Of a stretch of DNA of 52,407 nt, positions 9,175-43,354 are shown one piece after another. The position numbers and the translations under genes are program-made. Within the stretch, counting starts at the first letter, position 1; each line of letters opens with the position of its first letter. This stretch comes from a virus: UHGV virus genome UHGV-0113213; one strand, 5' to 3'. Below the pieces are notes generated by a model. That model was not told where the DNA came from and ran no database searches. It saw only the letters and a program-made list of their open reading frames with translations.

Positions 9175-9175
9175 A

Positions 9176-9192: not shown

Positions 9193-9199
9193 ATAGCTA

Positions 9200-9242
9200 G
9201 TTTACAAAATGGCTTCACATAGCACGCAACAAGATGTATATA
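9200..9242 (+). promoter_or_regulatory. sigma70-type promoter of the 9283-9710 cassette
   Basis: GTTTACAAAATGG motif (9200-9212) abuts -35 TTCACA (9214-9219); 17-nt spacer; -10 TATATA (9237-9242). Confidence 0.6.
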
Positions 9243-9282
9243 GAAAGCAAGAAGAAAGTAGTACCAACGAAGGAGGCCCAAA

Positions 9283-9800: not shown

Positions 9801-12139
9801 TTGCGGCGAGGTTGCAACATTCCGCCTGGTCTTTGAGATTCCCTTGTTATCATTTTCATGGCTACACGTTCCATTGTTAATTCAAGTCTGCGGCTGTCTT
9901 CGTCGCTGAATCCGTTCGTGGTCTGAATGCTGATACTGACAGGCATACTAATACCGCCACCGCCGCCAATATCACGGCCCGGAATAACTCTGCCGTTCTC
10001 GCCAGGGATCATATATTGATTGCCGTTAGATGTCTGGAATAGCTCCGGCCTGTTGTGTTCCCCTACGCGGTACATATTACCACCAATGACGCTACCACCA
10101 TTAAAGCGACCGCCGCCGAAAATTGACGTAGCCAGCGACATGATCGCAGTGAGCGCCGCCGAACCAGCCGCCGCCCAGCTACCGCCAGTTGACGCCGCAG
10201 TTGCCGCCGCTGCTGGGGCCGCCGCCGCAGCAATGCTTCCCTGAGCTGCTACCGCGCTTGCTGTTGTACTTGTTTGCGTGGCCTTGCTTTGTGTCTCCAT
10301 CATGATCTGATCTGCTATCCAGTTTGCAGCTATGTCTGAGAGTCTGTTACCGATATTGCCGAGTATATTGCTTCCTAAGTTAGCAAAAACATCACTCAAT
10401 GATTGAGTGCCGTTTAACAGGCCAACAAGCGCATTACTCATTCCGCCTTTAAGGCCATTAACACAATCACCGATAAGGCCGTTTGTGTCGCTTTGCGCCT
10501 GCCATTGTTCCCATTTCAGATCGCGGATCTGTTGCTCATAGGCTAACAATTCCTGTTTCTGTTGCGCTTCAGTAGCGCCCAGGTCTATAAGCATTTGCTT
10601 ACGGATGGCCCATTCATTTTGCGCCTGCTGGATGGGGTCAACTTCGCCTTTTAGCTGATCCATCGGGCTTACTATTTGTGACCATTTATCACGCAATTCA
10701 TCTACCGGAATTTGTGCTAATTCTTCTTTCAGTTCCTTGCCGATCCCTTTTTGCGCGGCGCGGTACTCAAGGAGCGTGATTTTACCCTGGGCAAATGCAG
10801 CATCAATGGCCTTGCCGTTCTCCAACGCTTTGCGCATGGCGGCGGCGTCTTTGTTGTACTGATCAGAAACGCTTATACCTTTGTCACCAAGCCGATCAGC
10901 TTCCGATTTCTTCTCTTTTTTCTGTTTTTTCGGCTTGTCTACTGGCTTGTCGAATCCGGTAATCGCTCCGTCATTGGCAGCATTCTGTTCATTTTTCCTT
11001 GCTTCTTCTGTAGCCTGGATTGCTGCGGTCAGATCATCCTGTAGTTGCATGACCTTGCCAACGGTCTTCCCGTATTTCTTCTCGTAGTTGCTGTTATATT
11101 CGTCGGTTTGCTCTCCTACTACCTCCTTCATCCATTTATAGCCATCCATTAGCGCCTTGATTGGCGTCACCATTGCGATGATCTTCTCTGCCACCTCTCC
11201 AGCCTTAACAGCCACATCATCAAACATGTCGATAAATTCGCTACCAGCCGTTTTGAGTGTGTCGAAGCAGGTTTTAGCGAATTTAGCGCCATCGCCAAGC
11301 CCTTTAACGCCTTTCGTGATCAAGTCGATAGCTGAAACAACGCCATCTGACACGCCAAAAAGATCATCCAACTGCTCAACAAGGCCCATAATTTCTACTT
11401 TAAGCTCATTGATAGCCATGCCGGATGTGCGCGGCAACTGAGCAAACTTATCGTTTGTTTCCTGCGTAGCCGCCTGTATTGCGTTAACCATCCTTTCAGC
11501 CGTGATCTTGCCGTCCAGCATTTCGGCGCGGAACTGGCCCATTGATAATCCCATATGGCGGGCCATTGTTTGTACGATGGTCGGCGTATTTTCAAGCAGG
11601 CTGTTAAATTCTTCGGCACGAAGAACACCGCCGTCGATAGACTGACGGAATTGACGCATTGAGTTAGACATCTGTTCCGCTGACGCGCCGCCTAATGCAC
11701 CCATTTTCTGAATAGTGCCAACCAGGTTAAGCAATTGCCCTTCCGTAGCGGAGGTGTTTTTTAGTGAGATAGCCAGGCCTTGCCATAATTCGCCAGTATC
11801 TTTCAGGCTCTGCCCCGTCTCCCTGGATATTGCTTTCAGGCCGTCGAAAACCCGTCCGGCGGACTCCGCATCGCCCGTAAGCATTTTGATTTTTACGCGA
11901 AGCATTTTTGCTTGCTCCGCCATATCCATAAATTGGCGCACAGCCTCCGCAGCAATTAGCAGATGGATAACCCTGGTCAGTGCCTTGATGGATGTTTTCA
12001 GGGTGTTTACCTGGCGGTCAGCCTGTTTTGCGCCGCGCTCTATACGATCAAAGGCCTGGTCTGCCTGTCGTTGTGCAACGAGAAGTTGACCAGTTTTCGC
12101 ATCAACTTCGTAATAAATTGTACCTACACTGGTAGCCAT
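9797..12139 (-). CDS. H: tail tape measure protein
   Basis: 780 aa. Long alpha-helical, Ala/Gln/Gly-rich, with a Gly/Ala-rich hydrophobic segment near the C-terminus. Position between the chaperone and M. Confidence 0.9.
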   Translation of the reverse strand: MATSVGTIYYEVDAKTGQLLVAQRQADQAFDRIERGAKQADRQVNTLKTSIKALTRVIHLLIAAEAVRQFMDMAEQAKMLRVKIKMLTGDAESAGRVFDGLKAISRETGQSLKDTGELWQGLAISLKNTSATEGQLLNLVGTIQKMGALGGASAEQMSNSMRQFRQSIDGGVLRAEEFNSLLENTPTIVQTMARHMGLSMGQFRAEMLDGKITAERMVNAIQAATQETNDKFAQLPRTSGMAINELKVEIMGLVEQLDDLFGVSDGVVSAIDLITKGVKGLGDGAKFAKTCFDTLKTAGSEFIDMFDDVAVKAGEVAEKIIAMVTPIKALMDGYKWMKEVVGEQTDEYNSNYEKKYGKTVGKVMQLQDDLTAAIQATEEARKNEQNAANDGAITGFDKPVDKPKKQKKEKKSEADRLGDKGISVSDQYNKDAAAMRKALENGKAIDAAFAQGKITLLEYRAAQKGIGKELKEELAQIPVDELRDKWSQIVSPMDQLKGEVDPIQQAQNEWAIRKQMLIDLGATEAQQKQELLAYEQQIRDLKWEQWQAQSDTNGLIGDCVNGLKGGMSNALVGLLNGTQSLSDVFANLGSNILGNIGNRLSDIAANWIADQIMMETQSKATQTSTTASAVAAQGSIAAAAAPAAAATAASTGGSWAAAGSAALTAIMSLATSIFGGGRFNGGSVIGGNMYRVGEHNRPELFQTSNGNQYMIPGENGRVIPGRDIGGGGGISMPVSISIQTTNGFSDEDSRRLELTMERVAMKMITRESQRPGGMLQPRRK

Positions 12140-12936: not shown

Positions 12937-13311
12937 ATGAAAAAAATAATCAAAGCGGTTCTCATTGGTGTTATGGCTTTAGCTCTTACAGGGTGCGCAA
13001 GATCAACTGATTTCGTTAAGTTAGCTGATAAAAATTTGCAAGTTGGAATGACTTGTGAGCAAGTGAATAAAATAATGGGGGAACCACAAAGAATCGAGCA
13101 TGACGGTAATTATAGTTATCACGTATGGTATTCAGTAACCAGCACGATAGGATTTACTTACATGGATGTTGAAGAATTATCCCCTTCAAGGGTTATCGCA
13201 AAGTTTGATAACTGCATCCTAAAAGAATGGAAAGATCGCAGTAAGGCAAAGTCTGTATACAATACAATCACACACAGTTCACCAGGTACAGCAATTAAAG
13301 ATTTCAATTAG
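12937..13311 (+). CDS. lipoprotein with a BamE/SmpA-OmlA-like fold signature
   Basis: 124 aa. MKKIIKAVLIGVMALALTG|C lipobox. LQVGMTCEQVNKIMGEPQ resembles the BamE-type motif (recalled). Confidence 0.7.
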   Translation: MKKIIKAVLIGVMALALTGCARSTDFVKLADKNLQVGMTCEQVNKIMGEPQRIEHDGNYSYHVWYSVTSTIGFTYMDVEELSPSRVIAKFDNCILKEWKDRSKAKSVYNTITHSSPGTAIKDFN

Positions 13312-14011
13312 CAAAACGCCCGGATCTACCGGGCTTTTCTTGCTCACGATTTTTCATTCTTTCTAGTGCCTTTTTAGCGGCCTCCATTTGCTCGTCATAA
13401 GCACGTTTATTTATGTGAATGTTTGGCTTGCTTTTCTCGTTTCTTTCGTCTGGCGGCGTTTTAGCGCGTACAGCGGCCCTATATCCGGTCATTGTCATAT
13501 TCCATGCTTCCGATTCTGACAAGCCCAGGTGAGCAACGGCAGAATAGACGAATTCAAGGACGTTAAAAGTCGGCTTATATTCCCCTTCCGGGATTTCCCC
13601 GGACTCTTCTTCCGGGCCATCACCAATAAGACCGTGGTACATGCAGTGCTGCGCAAGCGTGATGATATCCTCGATCGGCATTAATCCGGGCTTTAACTTT
13701 AACTTACCCGAAGGAGTAAACCAGCATTCGCCCAATAACGGGCCTATTTCGTCGTCTGAGCAACATTTCAGGATGTGCATTGATGTCTGAACTATTTCAC
13801 CATAACACCGCGCCAGAATGCGATTGCGTAGGTCTGGATCTGCTGGCAATCGTGATGGATATTTGCCGCCGTGGATAAGTGCGAAATATTCGACAAGCTC
13901 ACTATCGTTGCCGATTTTAGCCATCGCAGCAAAGCAAGGATTAAACTCATAGCGCTTACCGTTCACCACGGCAGCAAATTGTCCTGTACGAACATGGATC
14001 ATAGTATTCAC
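13304..14011 (-). CDS. tail assembly chaperone (G/GT-equivalent position)
   Basis: 235 aa, located between the tail tube and tape measure genes. Acidic middle, basic C-terminus. A single continuous ORF; I could not find a convincing slippery site. Confidence 0.5.
   Translation of the reverse strand: MNTMIHVRTGQFAAVVNGKRYEFNPCFAAMAKIGNDSELVEYFALIHGGKYPSRLPADPDLRNRILARCYGEIVQTSMHILKCCSDDEIGPLLGECWFTPSGKLKLKPGLMPIEDIITLAQHCMYHGLIGDGPEEESGEIPEGEYKPTFNVLEFVYSAVAHLGLSESEAWNMTMTGYRAAVRAKTPPDERNEKSKPNIHINKRAYDEQMEAAKKALERMKNREQEKPGRSGRFAN
13315..13342 (+). terminator. rho-independent terminator of the lipoprotein cassette
   Basis: GCCCGG(13318-13323) ATCTA CCGGGC(13329-13334) followed by TTTTCTTG. 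Embedded in the 3' end of the convergent minus-strand ORF. Confidence 0.7.
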
Positions 14012-14013
14012 CT

Positions 14014-14040
14014 TAAAAGAAAAGGGGCCAAATGGCCCCG
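14014..14040 (-). terminator. rho-independent terminator after the major tail gene
   Basis: GGGGCC(14024-14029) AAAT GGCCCC(14034-14039), followed on the minus strand by TTTTCTTTT. Confidence 0.75.
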
Positions 14041-14057
14041 ATTGTTAATATTGGCTG

Positions 14058-14534
14058 TTATGCTGGCGGAACGTCGCCTACCGTTACCTTGCCAGCGCTT
14101 TCGCACTCAATAGACCAGGTGGAAACATCATCATGCGGATCTTCTTCTTTAAAGGAAGTGCAAAGGAATGGGCCTTCAGTTACGTCTACAGGAGAAACGA
14201 TCTTCAGCCATACATAAGGTTGTGATCCGGTGGTTTCACCTGGCGTAATTACGTGGCGTTTCAGCGCTTTCTGATTATGGATTTCTTCAGTGCGGGACAC
14301 ACCGTCGCCGGAGAAAGAAACGGATTTGTAAGTAACCATTGATTCTTTCGTGTAATCGGCTGATTTATCGGCGGTGGCGTCAGCGGTTTCCCATTCAACG
14401 GAAAGTGTTTTACCACGCATCATGCCTAACGCTTTGTACGCTTCAGCTTCCGGCTTCGCATTTGGACAAGCGATAGCGAAGAATACAGCAACGTCACGGC
14501 CTGTAAACGTGCCTTTTTCGCAAGTCTGAGACAT
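14058..14534 (-). CDS. major tail (tube) protein
   Basis: 158 aa. Position, size and a strong downstream terminator. Resembles TP901-1/phi13-type tail tube proteins (recalled, not searched). Confidence 0.7.
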   Translation of the reverse strand: MSQTCEKGTFTGRDVAVFFAIACPNAKPEAEAYKALGMMRGKTLSVEWETADATADKSADYTKESMVTYKSVSFSGDGVSRTEEIHNQKALKRHVITPGETTGSQPYVWLKIVSPVDVTEGPFLCTSFKEEDPHDDVSTWSIECESAGKVTVGDVPPA

Positions 14535-19145: not shown

Positions 19146-20077
19146 TCTTCGCCATATTTAGCGTGCGCAACTTTATAGTTTTCTTGCGCCCGATCTAATA
19201 TTCGTTCGTTTAATATGTTACCGTCTTCGTCAACTAATACGGTAATCGTGCTACATTTGCAGTTAATTGAATTAGGGGATCTACTCCACCATTCGCGCTG
19301 CTCATCTATGGTGTATGTTTTACCGTGCCGCTGCGCGTGCGATAGCCTGGTAGTCGGTGATAATGCCGAAATGTGCATTTGCATAGTGCGCAGATTAAAT
19401 TCTTCTGTCGCCGCTTCTGCCTCATCCATACGCGCTGTGCGTAACGCTGTGCATATTTCAGTTCGAGCAATACGTTTACACCTGTATAGCGGTAATTGCG
19501 TCTCCTGATTCAATGTGCGCGCTATTTCCAGTGGGTTTAAACCACGGGCCATGCCTTCAGTTAATCGCCGGGCCATATCCTTTTTGATCTGTGCGGTCAG
19601 CCCGCGCATTTCCTCAAATACACGGGTACGGACCAGAGCAAGGCGTGTTCGGTAAGTTGTACTGGATAACACGGCAGATACATCGGGATAAACGCTTGAG
19701 TACGTGACAGACTGGTTAGCAAGGTTGGCGTATTCCTGTGCCGTGCCTCGCAGATACGCGACCTTCACGTATTCCTGCCAGAACCAAAAACTTTCCGGGT
19801 CGGTTAGCTCGAATATCTCATCAATCATGTCGCTGGCGTCCTCCAGCATGTCGTGCAATTCATCCATGTAAATCTGGAAGGTATATTTCTTATTAACAGC
19901 CAGGCTATATTGTATTTTGTCCAGTATGGCGATATATGGATCGGCTACTTTTTTCAGGCAGGATTTGAAACGCTTAATAGCGCCAGACCTCAACCTCCCT
20001 GTCATGGTCGGGTCTTCGGTGTTAGATGGCATTATCGCGGCTGGAGGTATTCGCCTGATTATTTTCTTCACCTTCAT
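19136..20077 (-). CDS. head morphogenesis protein (Mu F / SPP1 gp7 family)
   Basis: 313 aa. RIARTEICTALRTARMDEA-type motif. Directly after the portal gene. The start may be an internal Met at 20032 or 20005, because the ORF overlaps the portal end. Confidence 0.75.
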   Translation of the reverse strand: MKVKKIIRRIPPAAIMPSNTEDPTMTGRLRSGAIKRFKSCLKKVADPYIAILDKIQYSLAVNKKYTFQIYMDELHDMLEDASDMIDEIFELTDPESFWFWQEYVKVAYLRGTAQEYANLANQSVTYSSVYPDVSAVLSSTTYRTRLALVRTRVFEEMRGLTAQIKKDMARRLTEGMARGLNPLEIARTLNQETQLPLYRCKRIARTEICTALRTARMDEAEAATEEFNLRTMQMHISALSPTTRLSHAQRHGKTYTIDEQREWWSRSPNSINCKCSTITVLVDEDGNILNERILDRAQENYKVAHAKYGEDWE

Positions 20078-21395
20078 TGTCGTTTTCCTCGTCGTCCAGT
20101 TCTACTTCCTGCGTTGGCCCTTCATACCCGGCAGCCTCGCGGATCTCGTCACCGTCGAATACTTGTTCACCTGTGGCGAGACATGCCTGATTGATTTGCG
20201 CCATTTTGTATGCCGCGTCGAGTAGCTCGGCTTTCGTCATGGCGTTAAGGTCGTCCCACAGTACCGACACGTCGACTGGCATACTGATAAGGCGGAGATC
20301 TGCCATCTTGCGGAATAGTTCCTCAAGCTCGCCTCCTATTTCCTCCCGGCGGGTCATACAGCGGTTATTGAAGTAGCGGAGGTCTTCGGTTGATGCACGC
20401 TCACCCTGCTGATTCCCAACCAGGATACGCGTTGGAATGTCGATACCAGCGGCGGCGGTTTGCAGGTTGACGTCATAGGTAGCTGATGGATCCGCCACGG
20501 CAGTAACCAGCGGGCTAACGGTAGCTCCCTGTAATGCCATCATCACATCATTCCCTTTGTTTATATCCTCTGCCGCTTCATTGAATTTTTCGCGCAGCTC
20601 TGTAACGTCGCAACCGTATGTCGCAGCCAGGGAACGGAAATCAATCTCTTTGTCGAATGAGATAGCTAGTTGACGCGCTGCGTTTTTCAGAAAGGATTCA
20701 CCGCTACCGCCTTCCACTTTCTCCAGCGATACAAAAGCGTTATAGGACGGCTCAAGGAAAGCGATGGCATCATCAGAATAATCACCGAAGATAAATATGC
20801 GATCTGGATGTATCTTTCTTGCTATGGTCTTACTGTTAATGCGCTCCTTGTATTCCCACCATGTCGGCAGGCCATAGCTTTCACTTTCCGGATCTTCTTC
20901 GAAGTCCTTCGGTGTAAGAGCACCAGCCCATACAGGGGTAAATTTGGCAATGCCTACACCTTTCGTCACTGGCTGATCCCACGGCTGGTTATCCCTGACG
21001 TGAATTAACAGGCCAGCATAACGACCAATGAGGCGGCGGCGATCGCATTCAGCTATGACGCGCCAGAAACGATTATCAAATCGTTTTTTGATTTCTCTTT
21101 CCCACGGCGTTTCCTTTTTTGCTTTCTCGTCTTCCGTACCTTCGATCAGCGTTGGCCTGGTGCGCCAGCACGTAGTGATGATCTTCTCAATAGCACCGTG
21201 AGCGATACCACCGCGACGATACAGTTTGTATAAATCGGCATAGGTGATTTCTTCTTTGAATCCGTATTCACTCCACGCAGCATCACGCTTTGCATCAATA
21301 CCCATTGAGAAAGGATGCGCGGCGGCATAGCGTGCAAAGGCCGCCTGACGTTGTGACAAGGCAGCATTAACCGCCAATTCTAAATTGGATGGCAT
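20022..21395 (-). CDS. portal protein
   Basis: 457 aa from the ATG at 21395 (AGGAG SD). The track ORF starts at 21416. Size, acidic C-terminus and position between TerL and the Mu-F-like gene. Confidence 0.8.
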   Translation of the reverse strand: MPSNLELAVNAALSQRQAAFARYAAAHPFSMGIDAKRDAAWSEYGFKEEITYADLYKLYRRGGIAHGAIEKIITTCWRTRPTLIEGTEDEKAKKETPWEREIKKRFDNRFWRVIAECDRRRLIGRYAGLLIHVRDNQPWDQPVTKGVGIAKFTPVWAGALTPKDFEEDPESESYGLPTWWEYKERINSKTIARKIHPDRIFIFGDYSDDAIAFLEPSYNAFVSLEKVEGGSGESFLKNAARQLAISFDKEIDFRSLAATYGCDVTELREKFNEAAEDINKGNDVMMALQGATVSPLVTAVADPSATYDVNLQTAAAGIDIPTRILVGNQQGERASTEDLRYFNNRCMTRREEIGGELEELFRKMADLRLISMPVDVSVLWDDLNAMTKAELLDAAYKMAQINQACLATGEQVFDGDEIREAAGYEGPTQEVELDDEENDNEGEENNQANTSSRDNAI

Positions 21396-21417
21396 AATGT
21401 TTACTCCTGAATGCATG

Positions 21418-21443
21418 TTTACGCGTTGCTACGCGAAAAATAG
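21418..21443. repeat. conserved hairpin element, copy 2 (see 9148-9174)
   Basis: TTTACGCGTTGCTACGCGAAAAATAG, in the 78-nt gap between TerL and portal. Confidence 0.6.
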
Positions 21444-21473
21444 AAAAATTCGTGATGGATTGTGAGATGTTTT

Positions 21474-22988
21474 TTAAAATCCGCGCAGGCGCTTAGGTAA
21501 CATAAGGCCCATTGCCTGTGGCTGGCTTAATTCAGTGATACCCCACACCATAGCGTCGAGGCGGTCAGGTGATTTTTTAGCGGTAGCTGGCACGTATTCC
21601 ATCATTTGATTTTCCAGCGTGTACAGGCTGCCTGTGTGGGCCACCCTTCCTTGTGCATACAGTGCCGATATTGGCTCGGCGCGGGCGAATTTACCCTTGC
21701 TTGCGTGCACCTTAACAATGCGGCCTTTGAATCCGGCGTTACGTAGCGTGGCCTCTGCCATATCACCACCCTGGTTGGTTTCGATAACCATCGCGTCAGC
21801 TTCATGGATGTTGTAGGCGTTCATTGCTGCTTGCGCCCAGTCATTAGGTGACATGCGTCCTGAGTAGTCACCGTCTACTGAATACTGAGCATTCTTGCCA
21901 CCACCATAAGCGGAACAGGCTACAATCCCTGTTTCGTCTGACTCATCAGATGATGTTGTCGCCGGGTCGATGGCTATCACCGTGCGAATTTTCTCCTGCG
22001 TTATCTGCATCCTGTGCGCGGCGGTTATCATCGCTTCAGTCCACAATGCGCCCTCTTGATCGAACTTGCGCGGACACTGCATATATTGAGCTTCGAATGT
22101 TCGGCGATGTGATTTAAGAGTTGATTCATCTTTATCACTATGCTTATGCAACCATAGCCAGCCATCCGGCAGGTTGTGAGGAACAGGAATAGCAAATTTG
22201 TTTTCCGGGTACAGATCCCAATAGTCAAGACTGTTGTCGATCTTCACTGGCAGGCAAAGGTGATGCCATTTCTCACCACTACCGCCACGTAACAGGTAGC
22301 CGGATAAATCATCGTAGTGGATACGCTGCATGATGACGATCACTGGCGTTGTTTGCACAGCCAGGCGCGAAGAAAGCGTGTCGTTGTAATTGGTATTAAC
22401 CTGCTTTCGCACCACATCAGAATAAGCGTCAGCTGGTTTCAGGGGGTCATCAATAATCATTGCGCCGTTAAACCCAGGTTCCATGTACCCGGCGCGGAAC
22501 CCTGTCACCTGTCCAAGCGATGACGTCGCATACACGCCGCCACCCTGAGTGGTCCACCACAGGTTTTTCGCGTTCGAATCGTTGCGCATTTGCATAGGCC
22601 ACAATTCCTGATATTGCGGCATCGTGATTATGTTTCTTGTCTCTGAGGAATTAAGCAAGGCGAGTCCGTGTGAATACGATACATGCAGGAATCTGGTGCG
22701 GGGTTCTATTGCGAGGCAGCGGGCCATCATGTGAATTGTGGCAATCATTGTTTTGCCATAGCCCGGTGGGATGTTGATTATCAACCTGGTGATTTCACCA
22801 TTAATAACTCGTTGTAGCGTATCGGCAATTATTCTGTGATGACGCCCAACCAAAAAGTCCTTGCCAACCTGTTGCTTATAAAAGTAGGAACTAAAAAACA
22901 AAGGTGCTGATATGTCTTTGGGGGCACAACCTTTAACACACAACCCCCTTAGAACCTCTCTGTCAATCTTTGTCGTCGCAGTCTCCAT
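21474..22988 (-). CDS. terL: terminase large subunit
   Basis: 504 aa. Walker A-like IPPGYGKT, a DD(P) Walker B region and a C-terminal nuclease-like half. Confidence 0.9.
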   Translation of the reverse strand: METATTKIDREVLRGLCVKGCAPKDISAPLFFSSYFYKQQVGKDFLVGRHHRIIADTLQRVINGEITRLIINIPPGYGKTMIATIHMMARCLAIEPRTRFLHVSYSHGLALLNSSETRNIITMPQYQELWPMQMRNDSNAKNLWWTTQGGGVYATSSLGQVTGFRAGYMEPGFNGAMIIDDPLKPADAYSDVVRKQVNTNYNDTLSSRLAVQTTPVIVIMQRIHYDDLSGYLLRGGSGEKWHHLCLPVKIDNSLDYWDLYPENKFAIPVPHNLPDGWLWLHKHSDKDESTLKSHRRTFEAQYMQCPRKFDQEGALWTEAMITAAHRMQITQEKIRTVIAIDPATTSSDESDETGIVACSAYGGGKNAQYSVDGDYSGRMSPNDWAQAAMNAYNIHEADAMVIETNQGGDMAEATLRNAGFKGRIVKVHASKGKFARAEPISALYAQGRVAHTGSLYTLENQMMEYVPATAKKSPDRLDAMVWGITELSQPQAMGLMLPKRLRGF

Positions 22989-26477: not shown

Positions 26478-26678
26478 TTACTTATTCCCCATTCGCGCGT
26501 CGTGTTCCTCTTGCGCTCGCTTGTTCTCCTGTGATTTGAAGTAATAGTTAACGGCAAATGTGCCTATGGTTGATAAGATACCCACAAAGACAGCAATATC
26601 ATTAATGGTTATCGCGCCGAAAAAAGCAGTTACGGCCCCGGTCACATACGCGCACGCCTCCCGTATTCTGTCGAACAT
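26478..26678 (-). CDS. S: holin (two-TM, pinholin-like)
   Basis: 66 aa, two hydrophobic helices, charged C-terminus ([15 protein letters not shown]). Directly precedes the SAR endolysin. Confidence 0.75.
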
Positions 26679-26694
26679 AGATTTTCCTCCAACA

Positions 26695-26722
26695 AAGCAA
26701 AAACCCGGCTCGTGGCCGGGTA
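26695..26722 (-). terminator. rho-independent terminator immediately upstream of the lysis cassette (tR'-like)
   Basis: CCCGGCC ACGA GCCGGG on the minus strand, followed by TTTTTGCTTTGTT, then GGAGG and the holin ATG. Confidence 0.65.
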
Positions 26723-26783
26723 ATTACAATTTCGCATTGTTAGGAAATATTTTAATCTATTTGTTTTTTATGCGCGATTATGG

Positions 26784-26966
26784 CTACAAATCACTAACTT
26801 TCACCAAATCGCCATTATCAAGCCAGATTTTAATTGTTTCTCGCGTCGTCTTGATGATTGGCGCTACCCACTCACCATCGCTAACGCAAACGCGAATATC
26901 ACCACCCTCTATGCGATAAAACATCTTGTCGATTAGTGTTACGGCGTATATACCATCTTCAATCAT
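26784..26966 (-). CDS. hypothetical small protein
   Basis: 60 aa, last ORF of the accessory block. Start overlaps the upstream stop (ATGA). Confidence 0.5.
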   Translation of the reverse strand: MIEDGIYAVTLIDKMFYRIEGGDIRVCVSDGEWVAPIIKTTRETIKIWLDNGDLVKVSDL

Positions 26967-27157
26967 TTCTTGCGCTCCTTAATAACCCTTTTGATCTGCG
27001 CGCGCGCGGCATCTACGAGAGCAATAAACACCGCTACAGGCCAGAAAGGAATCTCAAGACCACCACGATCGAGATCATTAGATTTGATAAAACAAGACAT
27101 CAGGATAGCGCCAGCAATATAAAGGAGAAACACAGCAATGATAAGACATTCAATCAT
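26963..27157 (-). CDS. small membrane protein
   Basis: 64 aa. Two hydrophobic segments (MIECLIIAVFLLYIAGAILMSCF; IPFWPVAVFIALV), basic tail. Confidence 0.55.
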   Translation of the reverse strand: MIECLIIAVFLLYIAGAILMSCFIKSNDLDRGGLEIPFWPVAVFIALVDAARAQIKRVIKERKK

Positions 27158-27290
27158 CCTCTTTCTCCCCGCCTAAATATTGATATATTTCTTCAGCATT
27201 TTCCCCGCGCTCAAAACAATAATGTTCAAACATGCGCCAATTTTCACTAAGAAACATAACAATAAAATTGTTAACGTATTCGTCATCCAT
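27150..27290 (-). CDS. hypothetical acidic small protein
   Basis: 46 aa (below the cutoff): MDDEYVNNFIVMFLSENWRMFEHYCFERGENAEEIYQYLGGEKEDD. Fills the gap exactly and overlaps the next start. Confidence 0.5.
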   Translation of the reverse strand: MDDEYVNNFIVMFLSENWRMFEHYCFERGENAEEIYQYLGGEKEDD

Positions 27291-27292
27291 AG

Positions 27293-27544
27293 TTAATCAT
27301 CCTCTTCATCATCTTCTTGTTCAGCCAGGAAATCATCTACGGCACGGTAAGTAACTGGAGGGATATATTCGAAGTCATCCGTATCAAGATCGAGCGTCCG
27401 GCTGTCGCCGTCGTCGTCCAGCGTATTCATCCCTAATTCACCGAAAGGGCCGTACCCAATGTGGCCCAGGTATTCGCAACCAATCGTAAACCCAGGGTAT
27501 TCGCCTTTACACCGGATTTTGTAAGGTTTATTTGATGCGCTCAA
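27293..27544 (-). CDS. hypothetical protein with a poly-acidic C-terminus
   Basis: The likely start is the TTG at 27544 (GGAGGG 8 nt upstream). The track ORF's upstream ATG would overlap the previous gene by 77 nt. Confidence 0.5.
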   Translation of the reverse strand: MSASNKPYKIRCKGEYPGFTIGCEYLGHIGYGPFGELGMNTLDDDGDSRTLDLDTDDFEYIPPVTYRAVDDFLAEQEDDEEDD

Positions 27545-27851
27545 TTTCCGACCCTCCACTTTCTGCTTTAGTGATTTTGTATTCTGCCGCCAGTTCAGCG
27601 CCAAGCAATTCCACTTCCATATTAGCGATACCCTGGAACATCAGATAGGCAAAAACTAGGCTTTTAATTCTATCCGGGTCTTCAAGATGGTCTGCATTAA
27701 AAGGCGGTTCCGATACGTGGAAGCATTTAACATGCGCATCGTCTTCAGTGGCTACACAGAAACATGCGCCAGGTTGCCCGGCGAATTCCCCCAATCTTTC
27801 TTCGTTCGGTAAAGTACCACGGAAAACTTTAACGCTGATAAATTTAGTCAT
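27528..27851 (-). CDS. hypothetical protein
   Basis: 107 aa, same-strand operon member. Confidence 0.55.
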   Translation of the reverse strand: MTKFISVKVFRGTLPNEERLGEFAGQPGACFCVATEDDAHVKCFHVSEPPFNADHLEDPDRIKSLVFAYLMFQGIANMEVELLGAELAAEYKITKAESGGSEIERIK

Positions 27852-27854
27852 TGT

Positions 27855-28109
27855 TTATTCTCCTTCGTAAAGAGTTGCCACCAGTTCGGCATCTGTTAGC
27901 GTGTTATAATCTGTATAAAACCCGCAACGCATAAGTGAAGAAAGGCCAGCCACTTTGCACCACATAGGGGTCGATTCGCTCAAATATTCATTCTCCCTTT
28001 TTTCGCTGTATTCCAGTTCATAAAACCGACTATTGTTAACAACCTCAATTACACGGCTGTATGTGCCATCAAGCCTACTAACTCCGCGCCATAGTCTGAT
28101 CACAACCAT
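27855..28109 (-). CDS. hypothetical protein
   Basis: 84 aa from the ATG at 28109 (GGAG SD). Confidence 0.5.
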   Translation of the reverse strand: MVVIRLWRGVSRLDGTYSRVIEVVNNSRFYELEYSEKRENEYLSESTPMWCKVAGLSSLMRCGFYTDYNTLTDAELVATLYEGE

Positions 28110-28148
28110 AATTTCTACTCCGTTTGATGGGGCCATTCTGCCCCGTGT

Positions 28149-28289
28149 TTATTCTTCTTCTCCTCCTCTAAATCCTAAGCACTCCGCGTATTCGTCAATG
28201 CTTAATGCTTCTTCACCTGGTGCCAATACTTCAAAGTAGCGGGCGTATAGTTCGAAAACCCAGGCCGGATATTTAGCGTTAGCGTTCAT
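28149..28289 (-). CDS. hypothetical acidic small protein
   Basis: 46 aa: MNANAKYPAWVFELYARYFEVLAPGEEALSIDEYAECLGFRGGEEE. GGGGG SD. Confidence 0.5.
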   Translation of the reverse strand: MNANAKYPAWVFELYARYFEVLAPGEEALSIDEYAECLGFRGGEEE

Positions 28290-28298
28290 GGTTCCCCC

Positions 28299-28577
28299 TT
28301 ATGCCATGCGTGCAAATTCAAGTGATTTGCATTCGTAGTCTTCCTCTGCCTGTTCGATGACTGCCATCATCATTTCGTTTGCGTTGTTGAATGCGTTGCT
28401 TTGTGCGAACTTGTCGGCTCCACCTTCTTCTTCGAACTCCGCGTTGTTTGCTGCAATGTAGTGATATTCGATGTTGTTCAGGTAAGGGCTTGCAGCGTGT
28501 GCTGGGTCTTCTTTCTCCACCATCTCCCAAAATGCGTTTAAGCGAGATTCGACTTCTTTGTTAATCCAGCGTTTCAT
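28299..28577 (-). CDS. hypothetical acidic protein
   Basis: 92 aa. GGAGGG SD. First gene downstream of the 28613-28674 promoter module. Confidence 0.6.
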   Translation of the reverse strand: MKRWINKEVESRLNAFWEMVEKEDPAHAASPYLNNIEYHYIAANNAEFEEEGGADKFAQSNAFNNANEMMMAVIEQAEEDYECKSLEFARMA

Positions 28578-28612
28578 TTTTCTACCCTCCGCATCGTTCT
28601 CTCTTCAGCTTC

Positions 28613-28674
28613 TTTATAACAAAATGGCACTGCCGAAACAATGCCATTTCGTAAACCTTGTGATACAGATCACA
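28613..28674 (-). promoter_or_regulatory. internal promoter module with a near-consensus CRP site
   Basis: Minus strand: AAATGTGATCTGTATCACA (core 28659-28674, 14/16 to TGTGATCTAGATCACA), then 25 nt from the centre to -35 TTGTTT (28636-28641), a 17-nt spacer containing CCATTTTG, and -10 TATAAA (28613-28618). Confidence 0.6.
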
Positions 28675-28675
28675 T

Positions 28676-28903
28676 TTACGTTTCTTCCGTAAAAGTAACC
28701 TTCATCGCCCCATCCGAACTACGGACAACATAACGACCAATACCGCCTAGCGGCCCTGCATACCATAAGTGACCGTAAGTGTCAGTCACGACGATAAACG
28801 GAAATTTAGGAGACAATCCCATCGGTTTTTCAGCCGTGTACTGTGCTCCTTCCTCAAAACAACCTAATCCCGATTCGTTACACGTTAAAATCATTTTATG
28901 CAC
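28676..28903 (-). CDS. small protein, D-x-x-G-x-x-W family member
   Basis: 75 aa. C..S...CF..G..Y.........FIVVTDTYGHLWY. Confidence 0.6.
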   Translation of the reverse strand: MHKMILTCNESGLGCFEEGAQYTAEKPMGLSPKFPFIVVTDTYGHLWYAGPLGGIGRYVVRSSDGAMKVTFTEET

Positions 28904-29135
28904 CTACATACGAAAACGCAGCAAAAGCACCACCACAAGCCCGCGCATAAACAAGCGCAGTTCCACATCCCATCTTATAAAATCGCCATAACTGGCCCTG
29001 GTCGTCAGTAATGGCGTGAATATATTCCTGATCCTTTGCGTCAAACAATGCCGCTCCGACTTCGTAGATCTTGCCATTCTTAAAAAACGCGCTGCATCGT
29101 GAGTATGTGCACTGGTATCTCTGATTCTGTCTCAT
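28896..29135 (-). CDS. small protein, D-x-x-G-x-x-W family member
   Basis: 79 aa. C..S.CS.FF.NGKIYEV......YIHAITDDQGQLWRFY. Confidence 0.6.
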   Translation of the reverse strand: MRQNQRYQCTYSRCSAFFKNGKIYEVGAALFDAKDQEYIHAITDDQGQLWRFYKMGCGTALVYARACGGAFAAFSYVGA

Positions 29136-29144
29136 AACACTACC

Positions 29145-29360
29145 TCACCACTTAACAAAACGCGCGATCGGTTCCGTACTGAACTGGCTGGCAACGTGTC
29201 CACGCGCGTAACAATCCCAATAGCGCCACGCGTCTCCGTGGTCGTCTTTAATGTATTGGGTGTTAAGTTCATCACCAGTCAGGTGAGCTACGGTATATAT
29301 TCCGCCAACCTCAAAGCATGATGATTTTGATTCAGTGCATCTAACATACATGATATTCAT
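29145..29360 (-). CDS. small protein, D-x-x-G-x-x-W family member
   Basis: 71 aa. VRCTESKSSCFEVGGIYTV......QYIKDDHGDAWRYW. Confidence 0.6.
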   Translation of the reverse strand: MNIMYVRCTESKSSCFEVGGIYTVAHLTGDELNTQYIKDDHGDAWRYWDCYARGHVASQFSTEPIARFVKW

Positions 29361-29581
29361 TCCTTATTTGCATTTATAAATAGCGCAACTGGCACACCAT
29401 TACCGCCAACGCCATCAACGAATCCGCTACCATTGAGATCGTTATAAAAAAACCACGGATCGCCATCTTCATCATAAATGTACTGAATATCGTTAGTTCT
29501 GCTTATTAGCGTTTCTATGTCGTAAATCTCATCAACCACAAAAAGATTAGGGAAACGAGACTTTATACATTTTACAAACAT
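29357..29581 (-). CDS. small protein, D-x-x-G-x-x-W family member
   Basis: 74 aa. VKCIKSRFPNLFVVDEIYDI......QYIYDEDGDPWFFY. Confidence 0.6.
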   Translation of the reverse strand: MFVKCIKSRFPNLFVVDEIYDIETLISRTNDIQYIYDEDGDPWFFYNDLNGSGFVDGVGGNGVPVALFINANKE

Positions 29582-29832
29582 CAGAAAACCCCTTTATAAT
29601 CGACCGTGTATTTTACCACCAATTTCCACTCGCTATAGTTTTCCATGTCGCGCGGCTGCCAGCCTTTCATGCCTACAGCACTACGCGCAGCGTGGCGGCG
29701 ATAATCGTCATTAAGATCGGCAATGCACCACGGTTGAAGGAAGAACATATAATTCGCTTCGTTAACCAGAATAGCCATCATCCGTCCAGTGGCCTTATCT
29801 TTCGCCCTGAAATAACTTACCTTGATTTTCAT
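29581..29832 (-). CDS. hypothetical protein
   Basis: 83 aa, ATGA-coupled to its neighbours. Confidence 0.5.
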   Translation of the reverse strand: MKIKVSYFRAKDKATGRMMAILVNEANYMFFLQPWCIADLNDDYRRHAARSAVGMKGWQPRDMENYSEWKLVVKYTVDYKGVF

Positions 29833-30044
29833 TTTAATACCTCGTCGATCAGCATTTCTTCTTCCAGGTTAGCCGGACGTTTACGGAATATCCCGGCAAA
29901 AACCAGGTCATCAAGTAGGTCTTTGCGTTTAAATAGCCACTCTTTCATTATTACCCCGTCATCGCTGCGATATACGACGCCGTTTTTCAAAAAATAAAAA
30001 GTGCTGGTATTTGTTTGAAGGTATAAATCTTCGTAAACGTCCAT
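29829..30044 (-). CDS. hypothetical protein
   Basis: 71 aa, operon member. Confidence 0.5.
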   Translation of the reverse strand: MDVYEDLYLQTNTSTFYFLKNGVVYRSDDGVIMKEWLFKRKDLLDDLVFAGIFRKRPANLEEEMLIDEVLK

Positions 30045-30048
30045 GATA

Positions 30049-30276
30049 TTAACCCTCGACTACTTGCAAGCCGCGCCCCTTATCGCCTACGAAGTCGCCC
30101 AGGCTAAACGTATATGACCACGCCGGGTTAATGTAGTAATCATCAGCACCGTGAGCGATAAGGTCTTTACCCAAAATGACGCAGGTCACATCATCAGAAT
30201 GAACAACGTCTACCGTTTCCCCTACCACGCGTTTTAATGATGGGTAGCCGTGATCGTGCAAGAATTTAACTTTCAT
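30049..30276 (-). CDS. hypothetical protein
   Basis: 75 aa, operon member. Confidence 0.5.
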   Translation of the reverse strand: MKVKFLHDHGYPSLKRVVGETVDVVHSDDVTCVILGKDLIAHGADDYYINPAWSYTFSLGDFVGDKGRGLQVVEG

Positions 30277-30560
30277 ATTTCTTTCCCTTTATAAGTAACA
30301 GCATCAGCGATCAACAATACCGCCAGCAATTCACCGTCATGTAACGGGTCTGGAATAGCAAAAAATATGTCGCTGTTTTTGTCCGGCACTACTACGCGCA
30401 TATTTCCCTGTTTGTCTTCATGCACGAACCACGGCTTTTCGTGTGGCTCAAACATGCCGAAAAGTAATTTAAGATCTATTTCTTCACCCTTCGTGAATAA
30501 CGACACATCAGTTGTAGTGATAACTAACGCTTTCTGATCTGCTGTTTTCTTCGCTCTCAT
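30273..30560 (-). CDS. hypothetical protein
   Basis: 95 aa. Contains F.KG....L...........PWFVHEDKQGN, possibly distantly related to the D-x-x-G family. Confidence 0.5.
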   Translation of the reverse strand: MRAKKTADQKALVITTTDVSLFTKGEEIDLKLLFGMFEPHEKPWFVHEDKQGNMRVVVPDKNSDIFFAIPDPLHDGELLAVLLIADAVTYKGKEI

Positions 30561-30790
30561 TCCTCTGTCTCCCAGCGGTCTATGCTGATTAAAAAGTCCC
30601 GGATAGCGTGTCGCTCGTCGCGCGTCGGTTTACGCTTCCGGTAAATTTTGAAATCGAACCATTCTTTTTCTTGTTCGAAGTCCAGATCGTAAGCAAGCGC
30701 CTCGATATATCCGCAGTCGTGATACTGGTAAGCCACGCCAGCACGAACAAAAAAGCGGGTTTTATCCCGCTTGTGTTCATAGATACACAT
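30557..30790 (-). CDS. hypothetical protein
   Basis: 77 aa from the internal ATG at 30790 (GGGG SD), which avoids overlap with the upstream gene. The track ORF starts at 30835. Confidence 0.45.
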   Translation of the reverse strand: MCIYEHKRDKTRFFVRAGVAYQYHDCGYIEALAYDLDFEQEKEWFDFKIYRKRKPTRDERHAIRDFLISIDRWETEE

Positions 30791-30800
30791 ATTTGCCCCA

Positions 30801-31031
30801 CTATGCAGTTGTGTAACTATCAACCAGCTTTTCATCCTTCATTCTGGAAAGCTGCATGATATTCATCGTGTAGCCGTTGTCAGAGAAAAGCCACTCCGCA
30901 GCCTTGCGACGAAAAACAATATCATCATGGTTACGTGTCCATGTAGCTATCACAACGCGTTTCCCGTTAGTGGCGAACATAGATAACGCGTTATCAACTA
31001 CGTCGATAGCCTGCCAGATTTTTAGTTCCAT
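30801..31031 (-). CDS. hypothetical protein
   Basis: 76 aa, operon member. Confidence 0.5.
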   Translation of the reverse strand: MELKIWQAIDVVDNALSMFATNGKRVVIATWTRNHDDIVFRRKAAEWLFSDNGYTMNIMQLSRMKDEKLVDSYTTA

Positions 31032-31387
31032 GATTTATCTCCGTAGATTTTGAATAGTTCACACGCTTCCTGATTTTCAAGTATATTCATATGCAGGTCA
31101 CGCAGGCGGCGCATTGTGCGGAATCGCGGTCTGAACTCCTGGCTACGTTTAATGTATTTGCCGCCAATTGAATAAATATGCCCGTATGCGTACCATCTGT
31201 TGCCTACCCATATATCATATTCTTTTCCTTCGTAATTAAATTTTATAGTTAGCTCGCCTACTTCAACTATTAACCCTTTATCAATGATGTCATTAAGCAT
31301 TTCGTCCCATTCTTTGAGGAATGGTTGCTGATAAAAACCAAAAAGCGTATTTGCAGCATGGCAAAGATAATCAATGATTATTTGCAT
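31022..31387 (-). CDS. hypothetical protein
   Basis: 121 aa, operon member. Confidence 0.5.
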   Translation of the reverse strand: MQIIIDYLCHAANTLFGFYQQPFLKEWDEMLNDIIDKGLIVEVGELTIKFNYEGKEYDIWVGNRWYAYGHIYSIGGKYIKRSQEFRPRFRTMRRLRDLHMNILENQEACELFKIYGDKSWN

Positions 31388-31391
31388 ATTA

Positions 31392-31604
31392 TCACCACAT
31401 CATGTAATAAACGTTCTCGTCAGCTAATGCGTCCGCTACATCCTGCGTCATGTGCCTGACTTCAAGGAAAAAATCCTCATCATGCCATTCACTAACAAGC
31501 ATACGCGCCCATTTACGGCGGCGGCGCTTATTGTGTCGTAGATCATCAAAAGTCATTAATGCTTTGTCATATGCCCTTACAAGGCGTTTACGGTTACTTT
31601 TCAT
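31392..31604 (-). CDS. hypothetical basic protein
   Basis: 70 aa from the ATG at 31604 (ATGA overlap with the upstream stop). Confidence 0.45.
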   Translation of the reverse strand: MKSNRKRLVRAYDKALMTFDDLRHNKRRRRKWARMLVSEWHDEDFFLEVRHMTQDVADALADENVYYMMW

Positions 31605-31909
31605 TGCTCGACCCACCTTAACATCCAATTCACATCACATTTAATTGCGAATACTCTCACCGGATCAGTGCCGAATAATGGATGTGTGATAGTTTTCACT
31701 TCGTACCCAAAATAAGGAAGGTTAATAATCCTGTGTTTTTCGTGGTTGGCAGGGTATCCCCATTTAATAATCAGGCGCTCATATTCCCGCCCTTCCAGAC
31801 GTTTACGCCAATAGTCATTATAAAGCCGGTATTCCTCCACCTTCTTTCCCGCCCGGATAGCGTGGAAATATTCCCCTTTCAGATTCAAATGCAGGTCTTT
31901 ACTTGCCAT
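31601..31909 (-). CDS. ASCH-domain-like protein
   Basis: 102 aa from Met13. LHLNLKGEYFHAIRAGKKVEEYR and ...VFAIK recall the ASCH beta-barrel pattern. Confidence 0.5.
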   Translation of the reverse strand: MASKDLHLNLKGEYFHAIRAGKKVEEYRLYNDYWRKRLEGREYERLIIKWGYPANHEKHRIINLPYFGYEVKTITHPLFGTDPVRVFAIKCDVNWMLRWVEQ

Positions 31910-32081
31910 CGCTATGATCCTGTAAACAGTCGTTATAGCCTTCAATATATCCGGTTAATCCGGTATTACTCACTGACCATTCAGCCGAACGGCGTTTGAT
32001 GGCCTTGTCCATCGTCATTTCATCGCCTGGTCCGCCTGGCTCAATGTATTTTCTTAAATCCCTTACTATCCACGCCATCAA
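31899..32081 (-). CDS. hypothetical protein
   Basis: 60 aa, operon member. Confidence 0.4.
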   Translation of the reverse strand: MMAWIVRDLRKYIEPGGPGDEMTMDKAIKRRSAEWSVSNTGLTGYIEGYNDCLQDHSDGK

Positions 32082-32156
32082 TGATGCGTATCACTGCACA
32101 CACGCGCCGTTAATGTCAGGTCATTGACCAGCTTTGCAAATAGATGTTCTTTTAAT

Positions 32157-32504
32157 TTAGGCTTCATTGTCGTCACCTTCGAAATACTGCTCAATCGCAC
32201 GTTTGACGTTCATTTCTCGCTGATAATTGTTACCGCTATAGATTGCGGCTGCCGATACGTGATCGATAATTTGCTGTAATAAATAAGGATGAATTTTTAT
32301 TTTTTCATCAAGGACAATGCGAGATGGCTTAGGTGCTGTAGCAATATCATCAACGATTTCTATCTCACCACCTCCGCCGCAGCGAGGACAAACGAATTTA
32401 TCACCTTGATACAGCATGATGCCGCAACCTTTTTCGGTTTTTACGACCATGCCATCGTCGTCGCAGTTTTCGCAATACAGCCACCGAATATTAATTATTT
32501 TCAT
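32157..32504 (-). CDS. zinc-ribbon protein
   Basis: 115 aa from the ATG at 32504. CENC...(26)...CPRCGGGG, a four-Cys ribbon. Confidence 0.5.
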   Translation of the reverse strand: MKIINIRWLYCENCDDDGMVVKTEKGCGIMLYQGDKFVCPRCGGGGEIEIVDDIATAPKPSRIVLDEKIKIHPYLLQQIIDHVSAAAIYSGNNYQREMNVKRAIEQYFEGDDNEA

Positions 32505-32694
32505 TGTCGTTACTCCGTCCGTAAATATGGACAGGCTCAACTGGTACTGCTGGCAATTCGCCATCATTTAACTCGCTCGCCATGCCTAATATTAAACGCG
32601 CTTCAGCACCAGTGACTTTCTTGCACCATGCGTCGCCTGTTTTATCTTCAAATAAGATAACGGCAAACTGATCGTTTATTTCCAGCTTATCCAT
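32491..32694 (-). CDS. hypothetical small protein
   Basis: 67 aa. The start overlaps the Q stop. Contains ILFEDKTGDAWCK (the D-x-x-G-x-x-W motif). Confidence 0.5.
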   Translation of the reverse strand: MDKLEINDQFAVILFEDKTGDAWCKKVTGAEARLILGMASELNDGELPAVPVEPVHIYGRSNDNENN

Positions 32695-33422
32695 TATTCA
32701 CCCCGTGTCACTCGTTTGATTTCGCTTTCCGCGCGAGATTCTTCTTTGAATAGCTCCGCTATGGCGTCTTCATAGAAAACCCTGTATTTCTTCCACCATG
32801 TTGATCTGCTTACCGGGAAAACAAGCTGGTTAACAGCCTGCCGGACGAGATCTACAGGGAAACGCGAGTACCCGCGCCCGCCGCAGTGCTGGCACGTTTT
32901 GAATACTGGCATTTCCGCCGCTTCGCTGGCTGCTTTATCCGGTACTTCGCCACGCCCCTTGCACCTCTGGCAATGGTTTTTAACGTAGCCTTTGCCGTTG
33001 CACCGCGAGCAAACTGTCGATGTGTATTCACAATATGGATTCGGTAAAAGCCCGTTACCTCCGCACTTAGGGCAAACCTTTTCGGTAGCCGCACTTTGGC
33101 AGTAATCCCGAAACGCGAAAACGGCAACAAGAATAATAAGATCATTGCGTTGTTCTTCATTTAATTCCATCACGTATTCGTAATCTTTCGCCATAACCCT
33201 TAAACGCTCTGTAAGCAAAATTACGGCCCTGTGTTTTTCAGCTTGCGATAGCTCCATTTTCCCTAAAAAAGCACTATAGCCAAGCTCTACGCGCGATTGC
33301 GCCATACCAGCGGCGGTAAGCGCATCCGTCGTATTAAGTGCATCCGGGGATGTTCCCCGGCTTTCGTCTGATAATCGCGGTGATTTGGGAAAGTGGAATT
33401 TCAGAATGGATTCTAAATTCAT
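32694..33422 (-). CDS. Q: late-gene antiterminator Q-like protein with four DnaJ-type CxxCxGxG zinc knuckles
   Basis: 242 aa. CPKCGGNG, CSRCNGKG, CQRCKGRG, CQHCGGRG. The N-terminus MNLESILKFHFPKSP... resembles Q-family proteins of enterobacterial prophages as I recall them. Position after RusA. Confidence 0.65.
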   Translation of the reverse strand: MNLESILKFHFPKSPRLSDESRGTSPDALNTTDALTAAGMAQSRVELGYSAFLGKMELSQAEKHRAVILLTERLRVMAKDYEYVMELNEEQRNDLIILVAVFAFRDYCQSAATEKVCPKCGGNGLLPNPYCEYTSTVCSRCNGKGYVKNHCQRCKGRGEVPDKAASEAAEMPVFKTCQHCGGRGYSRFPVDLVRQAVNQLVFPVSRSTWWKKYRVFYEDAIAELFKEESRAESEIKRVTRGE

Positions 33423-34801: not shown

Positions 34802-34877
34802 AATGCTCTCTCCTTTTCAGGTGATTTCTACGCATTTCAGCGCTGCCGGATTTTTAAAGAGCATTTTGTTTGCTTGA

Positions 34878-43321: not shown

Positions 43322-43354
43322 TGCTCTTTAAAAATCCGGTGTCGCTGCGAAGCG
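43322..43354 (+). promoter_or_regulatory. nutR-like site: boxA plus a boxB hairpin
   Basis: TGCTCTTTAAAAA (43322-43334) against the boxA consensus (C/T)GCTCTTTAACAA. 8 nt later, CGCT-GCGA-AGCG (43343-43354): a 4-bp stem with a GNRA loop. Confidence 0.55.

Follow-up and report, generated by a model that had tools for sequence, protein, structure and literature searches.

The window analyzed here is the whole 52,407-nucleotide (nt) stretch of the viral genome UHGV-0113213. On its minus strand, a long run of small genes (the array) lies between a gene for a Q-family late antiterminator and the lysis cassette, in which a holin gene is followed by genes for lysozyme and Rz. A preliminary description, made from the sequence alone, had pointed out this run and interpreted it as an accessory or anti-defense island expressed early in the late phase. 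The run and both of its borders were confirmed, with Q identified by PF03589 and the holin by phrog_20 (Table 1). Q shares 34% identity with lambda Q across 99% of its length (E = 2e-30), as expected of a lambda-family Q protein. We consider it probable that the array is a lineage-specific accessory region that is expressed with delayed-early timing and lies between Q and the predicted site at which Q acts.

The array consists of 25 consecutive open reading frames (ORFs) of 40–136 amino acids (aa), numbered here o01 to o25 from the Q end. The density first described is real, but the count of about 26 was slightly too high, and only 24 genes are involved. Two of the ORFs, o03 and o04, match successive parts of one protein family and are separated by a 1-nt deletion that is visible in alignments with M1/5, MagusPhagus and 2017C-4173W12. 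Either the split gene is a pseudogene or the deletion is a sequencing error. Gaps longer than 12 nt occur at just two places, one of 98 nt in the middle of the array (28578–28675) and one of 105 nt next to the holin (26679–26783). Neighboring ORFs overlap by 4 nt (ATGA) at six junctions and by 1 nt at two. PHROG families were matched by 23 of the 25 ORFs, every one of them a family of unknown function, and the ratio of nonsynonymous to synonymous substitution rates (dN/dS) was 0.08–0.40 for the 23 ORFs with usable orthologs. Given these ratios and the PHROG matches, the ORFs are genes and not chance frames.

Judged by nucleotide and protein similarity and by synteny, the window belongs to the published mEpimmI (mEp021-like) group of temperate coliphages. 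It shares 84–88% nucleotide identity with Escherichia phages MagusPhagus, mEp010, mEp013, mEp044, mEp554, mEp021 and mEp515, and the window and its mEp relatives have one gene order: ninG, rusA, Q, array, holin, lysozyme, Rz. Prophages matching the region in the same identity range were found in 35 of 5426 complete E. coli genomes. The M1/5 prophage is 91–96% identical across almost the whole length of the window, so the window is an essentially complete genome of this group. Passages of the paper that describes the mEpimmI phages (Negrete-Mendez et al. 2025, PMC11893012) characterize them as Nus-dependent and non-lambdoid, with an N-like protein (Gp17), three nut sites and a lambda-like Q. 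They report about 50 core genes and class around half of the genes as “flexible”, mostly in variable regions. In the searched passages of that paper, there is no analysis of the region from Q to the holin, of where the late promoter lies or of the paralog family described below. For comparison we used the window and the Q-to-holin interval of 13 relatives, 14 genomes in all.

The length of this interval varied from 2006 bp with 8 ORFs (mEp021 and mEp515) to 7256 bp with 29 ORFs (strain Ecol_244), with the window at 6018 bp. The 286 ORFs of the 14 genomes fell into 39 protein clusters. Since the Q proteins of the relatives are 85–97% identical, this is variable content between a conserved Q and a conserved holin, as in an accessory region, and some of the genes are common to unrelated phage groups. 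In this respect the accessory character proposed earlier was borne out. Gene order was constant among the genomes, and the differences between them were whole-gene presence or absence and divergent alleles. Four clusters were present in all 14 genomes and a fifth in 13, with one divergent allele in addition. These five genes, which we call the kernel, are kept in the same order in every relative, and one of them is annotated as a virion gene in mEp021, so part of the block is core and the view of the whole block as accessory was too broad. An array both invariant and syntenic across relatives would have counted against the preliminary description; only half of this applies, as the array is syntenic but, outside the small kernel, far from invariant. 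The block is accessory but not free-for-all cargo.

mEp021 and mEp515 are plaque-forming isolates with 8 ORFs in this interval, and therefore at least 16 of the window’s genes are dispensable. The content of the array changes as whole genes are gained, lost or replaced by other alleles, with breaks at gene boundaries, while the order stays fixed around the kernel. The slot directly after Q illustrates this. In all 14 genomes the Q stop codon overlaps the start codon of the next gene (TAATG or TGATG), and four unrelated genes occupy this slot in different genomes with the overlap at the same position (32691–32697 in the window). This implies exchange exactly at gene boundaries.

The other end of the array is conserved. 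About 80 bp at the holin end of the 105-bp gap are nearly invariant in the 14 genomes despite different upstream ORFs, and the 105-bp block had matches in mEp-group phages only. It contains TAAAAT and AACAAT separated by 7 nt, which resemble a −10 element and a sigma-70 pause-like element. The lambda PR' counterpart is TAAATT, 6 nt, AACGAT. No other motif of this kind lies between Q and the holin or elsewhere in the window. It is followed by a predicted intrinsic terminator with a conserved stem, changes confined to the loop and a TTTTTGCTTTG tail that resembles the tails of the comparison phages; the mEp021 record annotates a terminator (TERM_5) at the equivalent position. Those comparison phages are lambda and three phages whose Q proteins are 34–39% identical to the window Q, namely HK225, SE1Spa and Erwinia phage Eho49. 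In all four, a series of elements begins about 25–60 nt past the Q stop codon: a −35 element, 17 nt, a −10 element, 5–6 nt, AAC(G/A)nT and an intrinsic terminator, which in HK225 lies only about 30 nt beyond the pause element. A late promoter immediately after Q is a lambda-type trait that the window does not share, as the predicted module here is 5.9 kb downstream of Q. We infer that the conserved block is the equivalent of PR', qut and tR', which would place the array between Q and its predicted site of action. Should the block contain a promoter as predicted, a constitutive, terminated RNA of about 50 nt would be made here, as at the PR' promoters of lambda and of Shiga toxin (Stx) phages.

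Two other features of the block were seen. A small A/U hairpin (ACAAU-GCGAA-AUUGU, 26726–26740 on the minus strand) lies between AACAAT and the terminator and is conserved in the 14 genomes. The −35 and spacer region (26755–26790) exists in two versions among the relatives, partly associated with two Q types; 11 of the 14 genomes fit this pattern and 3 break it, and we make no claim of Q-type specificity.

Because Q is translationally linked to the following ORF throughout the 14 genomes and the sole PR'-like module adjoins the holin, the array is probably part of an antiterminated delayed-early operon and not of a late one. Expression early in the late phase, as first proposed, is unlikely for the same reasons. 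An exact boxA-like sequence, GCTCTTTAA, is present at the nutR2 position described in passages of PMC11893012, and a second exact copy was found at the expected nutL position (43323–43331, plus strand). With this boxA upstream, ninG, rusA, Q and the array would all be read by RNA polymerase modified by Gp17, giving delayed-early expression like that of the lambda nin region. The array would then be the distal end of a delayed-early operon modified at nutR2, its products would be made alongside Q and before the late genes, and Q would act 2–7 kb downstream of its own gene.

The same modified polymerase would read through a terminator-like hairpin in the 98-nt gap. The core of this hairpin was found in 11 of the 14 genomes, whatever genes flank it, and the mEp010, mEp044 and mEp554 records annotate it as a terminator. 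The preliminary description had seen a CRP-type promoter module in this gap. A perfect CRP-consensus palindrome is indeed present, 2 nt past a stop codon and just upstream of the hairpin, but the gap is mainly the conserved hairpin and the CRP site occurs in only 5 of the 14 genomes. A class-I geometry can be drawn, with TATAAA about 61 bp from the palindrome center, but the −10 element lacks the conserved final T, the −35 element would lie inside the hairpin and the promoter scan did not flag the site. For these reasons we downgraded the CRP promoter.

A paralog family had also been noted, and four tandem members were confirmed (o14–o17, 28676–29581), with blastp E values of 4e-7 to 7e-5 in four of the six pairs and invariant C, S, F, Y, I, D, G and W positions. 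Between none and four copies occupy this slot among the 14 genomes. The family is very small. An exhaustive profile search of 1.84 billion representatives yielded about 15 small-protein clusters; low-scoring matches to long repeat proteins were treated as noise from a D-x-x-G-x-x-W motif. The four proteins are predicted to be six-stranded β-barrels with a prominent β1–β2 loop, a fold of the type seen in Gp54 of phage Bas11 (PDB 9AXB). The model also matched many uncharacterized small proteins of enterobacterial siphophages in BFVD, with template modeling scores of 0.7–0.8 and often several per genome.

Gp54 is a non-essential protein and an alternative trigger of the CapRel-SJ46 defense system, and its discoverers suggest that it may inhibit another defense (PMC11578894). 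Even close Gp54 homologs fail to activate CapRel (PMC11578894). The likeness of the window paralogs to Gp54 is in the predicted barrel fold. They differ in being four diverged tandem copies in a temperate phage and in having no detectable sequence similarity to Gp54. The micro-motifs F-x-x-G and G-x-x-W align loosely with the Gp54 escape sites G24 and W43, and we give this little weight. The paralogs are thus predicted to share the fold of a known defense-system trigger, which would link the array indirectly to phage-defense biology.

Homologs of single array genes were found in varied phages (Table 1). The ASCH-like protein o05 has homologs with 50–60% identity in Stx, lambdoid, P22-like, P1 and phage 21 genomes. 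Its earlier description as ASCH-like holds in part: the Pfam ASCH match (E = 0.024) is under the curated threshold, but RefSeq orthologs are named ASCH domain-containing or RNA-binding protein. The zinc-ribbon protein o02 weakly matches Pfam DnaJ_CXXCXGXG (E = 0.0064) and probably starts at 32504, giving 115 aa. The o01 allele in strain M1/5 is 48% identical to that of the window, compared with 95% elsewhere. Within the kernel, o12 shares 93% identity with gp41 of mEp021, a protein labeled “virion structural protein” in its GenBank record. The o11–o12 pair is about 38% identical to a pair of adjacent genes in rV5-like virulent myophages, and o18 shares about 70% nucleotide identity with a gene of these myophages. 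These homologs are a pointer to gene exchange between temperate and virulent E. coli phages. Word-indexed homolog searches returned 13 close relatives for o18 and 7 for o15. The distal genes o19–o25 (26784–28289) belong to PHROG families of unknown function, vary in presence, have divergent alleles and show dN/dS of 0.08–0.40. Small membrane proteins had been reported in the plural, but by hydropathy only o24 is clearly membrane-embedded.

Table 1. Features of the Q-to-holin interval and its flanks, with positions in the window. Relatives are counted among the 13 compared.
Feature	Position	Strand	Details
boxA-like sequence	34854–34862	-	GCTCTTTAA, exact match; nutR2 position, upstream of ninG, rusA, Q and the array
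Q-family late antiterminator	32694–33422	-	242 aa; PF03589 E 1.7e-31; phrog_127 E 3.7e-79
Whole array	26784–32694	-	25 consecutive ORFs, 24 small genes; packed, partly translationally coupled
o01	32491–32694	-	67 aa, acidic, flexible; phrog_35000 E 3e-40; dN/dS 0.13; 10/13 relatives
o02	32157–32567	-	zinc-ribbon protein (CxxC ... CxxCGGGG), flexible; phrog_4446 E 6e-6; 5/13 relatives
o03 + o04	31899–32200 (32078–32200, 31899–32081)	-	one split phrog_29262 gene; profile positions 1–28 and 31–89
o05	31601–31945	-	ASCH-like, basic; phrog_625 E 6e-36
o06	31392–31628	-	78 aa, basic, flexible; phrog_8758; 11/13 relatives
o07	31022–31387	-	121 aa; phrog_16975 E 6e-61; 11/13 relatives
o08	30801–31031	-	kernel
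o09	30557–30835	-	kernel
o10	30273–30560	-	flexible, inside the kernel (29581–31031)
o11	30049–30276	-	kernel
o12	29829–30044	-	kernel
o13	29581–29832	-	kernel
o14	29357–29581	-	tandem paralog
o15	29145–29360	-	tandem paralog
o16	28896–29135	-	tandem paralog
o17	28676–28903	-	tandem paralog
CRP-consensus palindrome	28659–28674	.	TGTGATCTGTATCACA, perfect; unique in window; 0.01 expected by chance
Terminator-like hairpin and T-run	28617–28652	-	−20.8 kcal/mol, z-score −4.7
o18	28299–28577	-	92 aa, net charge −11; phrog_7287
o19	28149–28289	-	distal flexible gene
o20	27855–28136	-	distal flexible gene
o21	27528–27851	-	distal flexible gene
o22	27293–27604	-	distal flexible gene
o23	27150–27290	-	distal flexible gene
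o24	26963–27157	-	membrane protein, distal flexible gene; Kyte-Doolittle 2.68
o25	26784–26966	-	distal flexible gene
Conserved non-coding block	26679–26783	-	105 bp; predicted late promoter, qut and terminator
Predicted PR'-like module	26736–26754	-	TAAAAT (26749–26754), 7 nt, AACAAT (26736–26741); −10 and sigma-70 pause-like element
Predicted intrinsic terminator, tR' analog	26694–26721	-	CCCGGCC-acgag-GCCGGG then TTTTTGCTTTG; −21.3 kcal/mol, z-score −4.6
Holin	26478–26678	-	first lysis-cassette gene; phrog_20 E 5e-20; 91–100% identity in all relatives

Direct support for an anti-defense function of the array genes was not found. Searches of PDB sequences, NCBIfam, Pfam and PADLOC found no similarity to known defense proteins or to characterized proteins that counter defenses or mimic DNA (Ocr, ArdA, Tad, Acb, Gad, Acr and others), and no toxin gene was found in the array by Pfam search. 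The preliminary description had emphasized poly-acidic small proteins, which are typical of DNA mimics. Many of the ORFs are acidic, but part of this acidity is a by-product of embedded Shine-Dalgarno sequences: the acidic C-terminal tails of several ORFs (EEE, EDD, TEE, EGE) are encoded by the stretch that also forms the Shine-Dalgarno sequence of the following gene, including in the 27293–27290 region. This weakens the DNA-mimic argument. The acidic protein o18 was modeled as four helices (AlphaFold2, predicted local distance difference test score 88), and a Foldseek comparison of this model with the PDB gave no meaningful fold match. With the tails explained by Shine-Dalgarno sequences and no PDB fold match for o18, we set the DNA-mimic reading aside as without support.

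A defense-related name was also met outside the array. The M1/5 ortholog (20899–22272 in the M1/5 locus) of the window’s portal gene (20022–21416, minus strand) carries the RefSeq name “anti-CBASS protein Acb1 family protein”. By Pfam, its counterpart in the window is a portal protein (PF06381), and NCBIfam gave no match, so this name is probably an annotation artifact. In the tail module of the M1/5 prophage (locus positions 8530–9304, 10179–10606 and 13163–14152), a KilAC antirepressor-domain protein, a ParE-like toxin and a TagO-like protein are encoded by inserts on the opposite strand.

Three other explanations of the array were weighed. If the late promoter were at or inside the end of Q, the 24 genes would begin the Q-antiterminated late transcript, as stx does. 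This arrangement would match Stx phages, in which cargo lies downstream of PR' (PMC6266700, PMC7547250), and it would suit the virion annotation of the mEp021 o12 ortholog. There is also a weak promoter-like sequence (ATCAAA, 16 nt, AATAAT) that spans the Q stop codon in 10 of the 14 genomes, with AACGAT 16 nt further downstream in the genomes that carry o01. However, none of the 14 genomes has any intergenic space after Q, and the scan gave no terminator just downstream of it. The sequence past the Q stop codon is wholly different in mEp021, mEp515, mEp044 and M1/5; as it is unrelated even though the Q proteins are 85–97% identical, a conserved qut cannot lie there. A late promoter at the Q stop codon was rejected because the candidate is not conserved where a different gene follows Q, and the conserved PR'-like motif and terminator adjoin the holin instead. 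We regard late-operon cargo as quite unlikely. Still less likely, in our view, is that the distal sub-block (28577 to 26784) is a moron with its own promoter, expressed in the lysogen under cyclic AMP-CRP control. The CRP palindrome is perfect and unique in the window, it has the class-I spacing described above, and the mid-array and pre-holin hairpins would bracket such a unit. Set against this are the defects of the putative promoter, the rarity of the CRP site relative to the hairpin (5 against 11 of the 14 genomes), and the distal genes themselves, which are as tightly packed as the proximal ones and share their strand and style.

The remaining explanation is that the small proteins are needed for phage development, for example in lysis timing, the late switch or the virion, and that the variation among genomes is neutral decay. 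We find this unlikely, though less so than late-operon cargo. Five genes are universal and in fixed order, all testable genes are under purifying selection, one ortholog has the virion annotation, and the array has the late regulator on one side and the lysis genes on the other. But the viable phages mEp021 and mEp515 do without at least 16 of these genes, several genes are common to unrelated virulent phages, and neither Pfam nor NCBIfam revealed a housekeeping domain in any array ORF.

Several observations nevertheless weigh against a delayed-early accessory array as we propose it. The predicted late promoter has a −35 element of TTGTAG or TTGTGG in nine genomes and the poor TCGCGC in the window and four others, and a generic promoter scan did not flag the site at 26736–26754. 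The virion annotation of the o12 ortholog is a better fit to late expression. A five-gene kernel in strict order is a poor fit to pure cargo, and when the window is compared with its closest relative, the variability of the block is only moderately above that of the genome backbone. As for function, none of the 24 ORFs scored above threshold against Pfam, NCBIfam or PADLOC, where the ASCH match to o05 was the best. The 24 ORFs concatenated (2018 aa) had no match among all PDB sequences at E up to 1; such a query is unorthodox, although local matches would still be reported. The likeness of the paralogs to Gp54 comes from a predicted model that was confident in only two of five runs. An hhalign comparison of the paralogs with the Gp54 sequence gave a probability of 0.2%, and a profile search of PDB sequences did not return 9AXB at E up to 10.

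In the delayed-early reading, the kernel probably serves the phage itself. The flexible genes, including the Gp54-like barrels with their zero to four copies, the ASCH-like gene and the genes shared with rV5-like phages, would most likely modulate the host or compete with its defenses or with other phages. A bolder version is that the separation of Q from its target created an early “expansion slot” for the turnover of counter-defense genes, in which the Gp54-like barrels diversify and bind, inhibit or act as decoys for CapRel-type sensors. We consider this doubtful, if somewhat less so than a purely developmental role for the array.

The nin region of phage lambda (ninA to ninI, between P/ren and Q) is a mosaic of small, mostly dispensable delayed-early ORFs, and its internal terminators are read through by N-modified polymerase. 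The array resembles it in having small, packed ORFs in a predicted antiterminated early operon, and the window also has ninF-, ninG- and rusA-like genes upstream of Q. It differs in that the array is downstream of Q, the Q target would be displaced by 2–7 kb and no ORF is homologous to nin genes. The interval from PR' to S in Stx and other lambdoid phages likewise lies between Q and the lysis genes and has variable accessory content (PMC6266700). In Stx phages, however, the cargo follows PR' and tR' and depends on Q, whereas in the window the PR'-like module follows the array, and no toxin genes were found in the array and no tRNA genes or Rfam families in the window. The accessory regions described by Silas et al. 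2023 (bioRxiv 10.1101/2023.04.06.535777) also consist of small, variable, exchanged genes between core genes. Unlike those, the window genes have no counter-defense role that has been demonstrated or can be deduced from homology, and their order and kernel are more constrained than in a typical hotspot. The array is a new, previously unanalyzed nin-like or accessory region, with the twist that Q would be 2–7 kb from its predicted site of action.

Among isolates from human stool, the mEpimmI phages are reportedly as common as lambdoid phages, and their flexible genes, about half of the total, are unstudied. The array is the largest block of such genes adjoining a well-understood regulatory switch. 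If the late promoter is downstream of the array, these phages offer a natural series of 2–7 kb inserts between Q and its target. The predicted match of the paralogs to the Gp54-type fold suggests that this rare barrel recurs widely as an accessory fold in enterobacterial phages. In practical terms, these findings give an experimental shortlist and not a new principle. If our reading is true, the array would provide a compact set of early-expressed, dispensable small proteins as candidates for host takeover and counter-defense.

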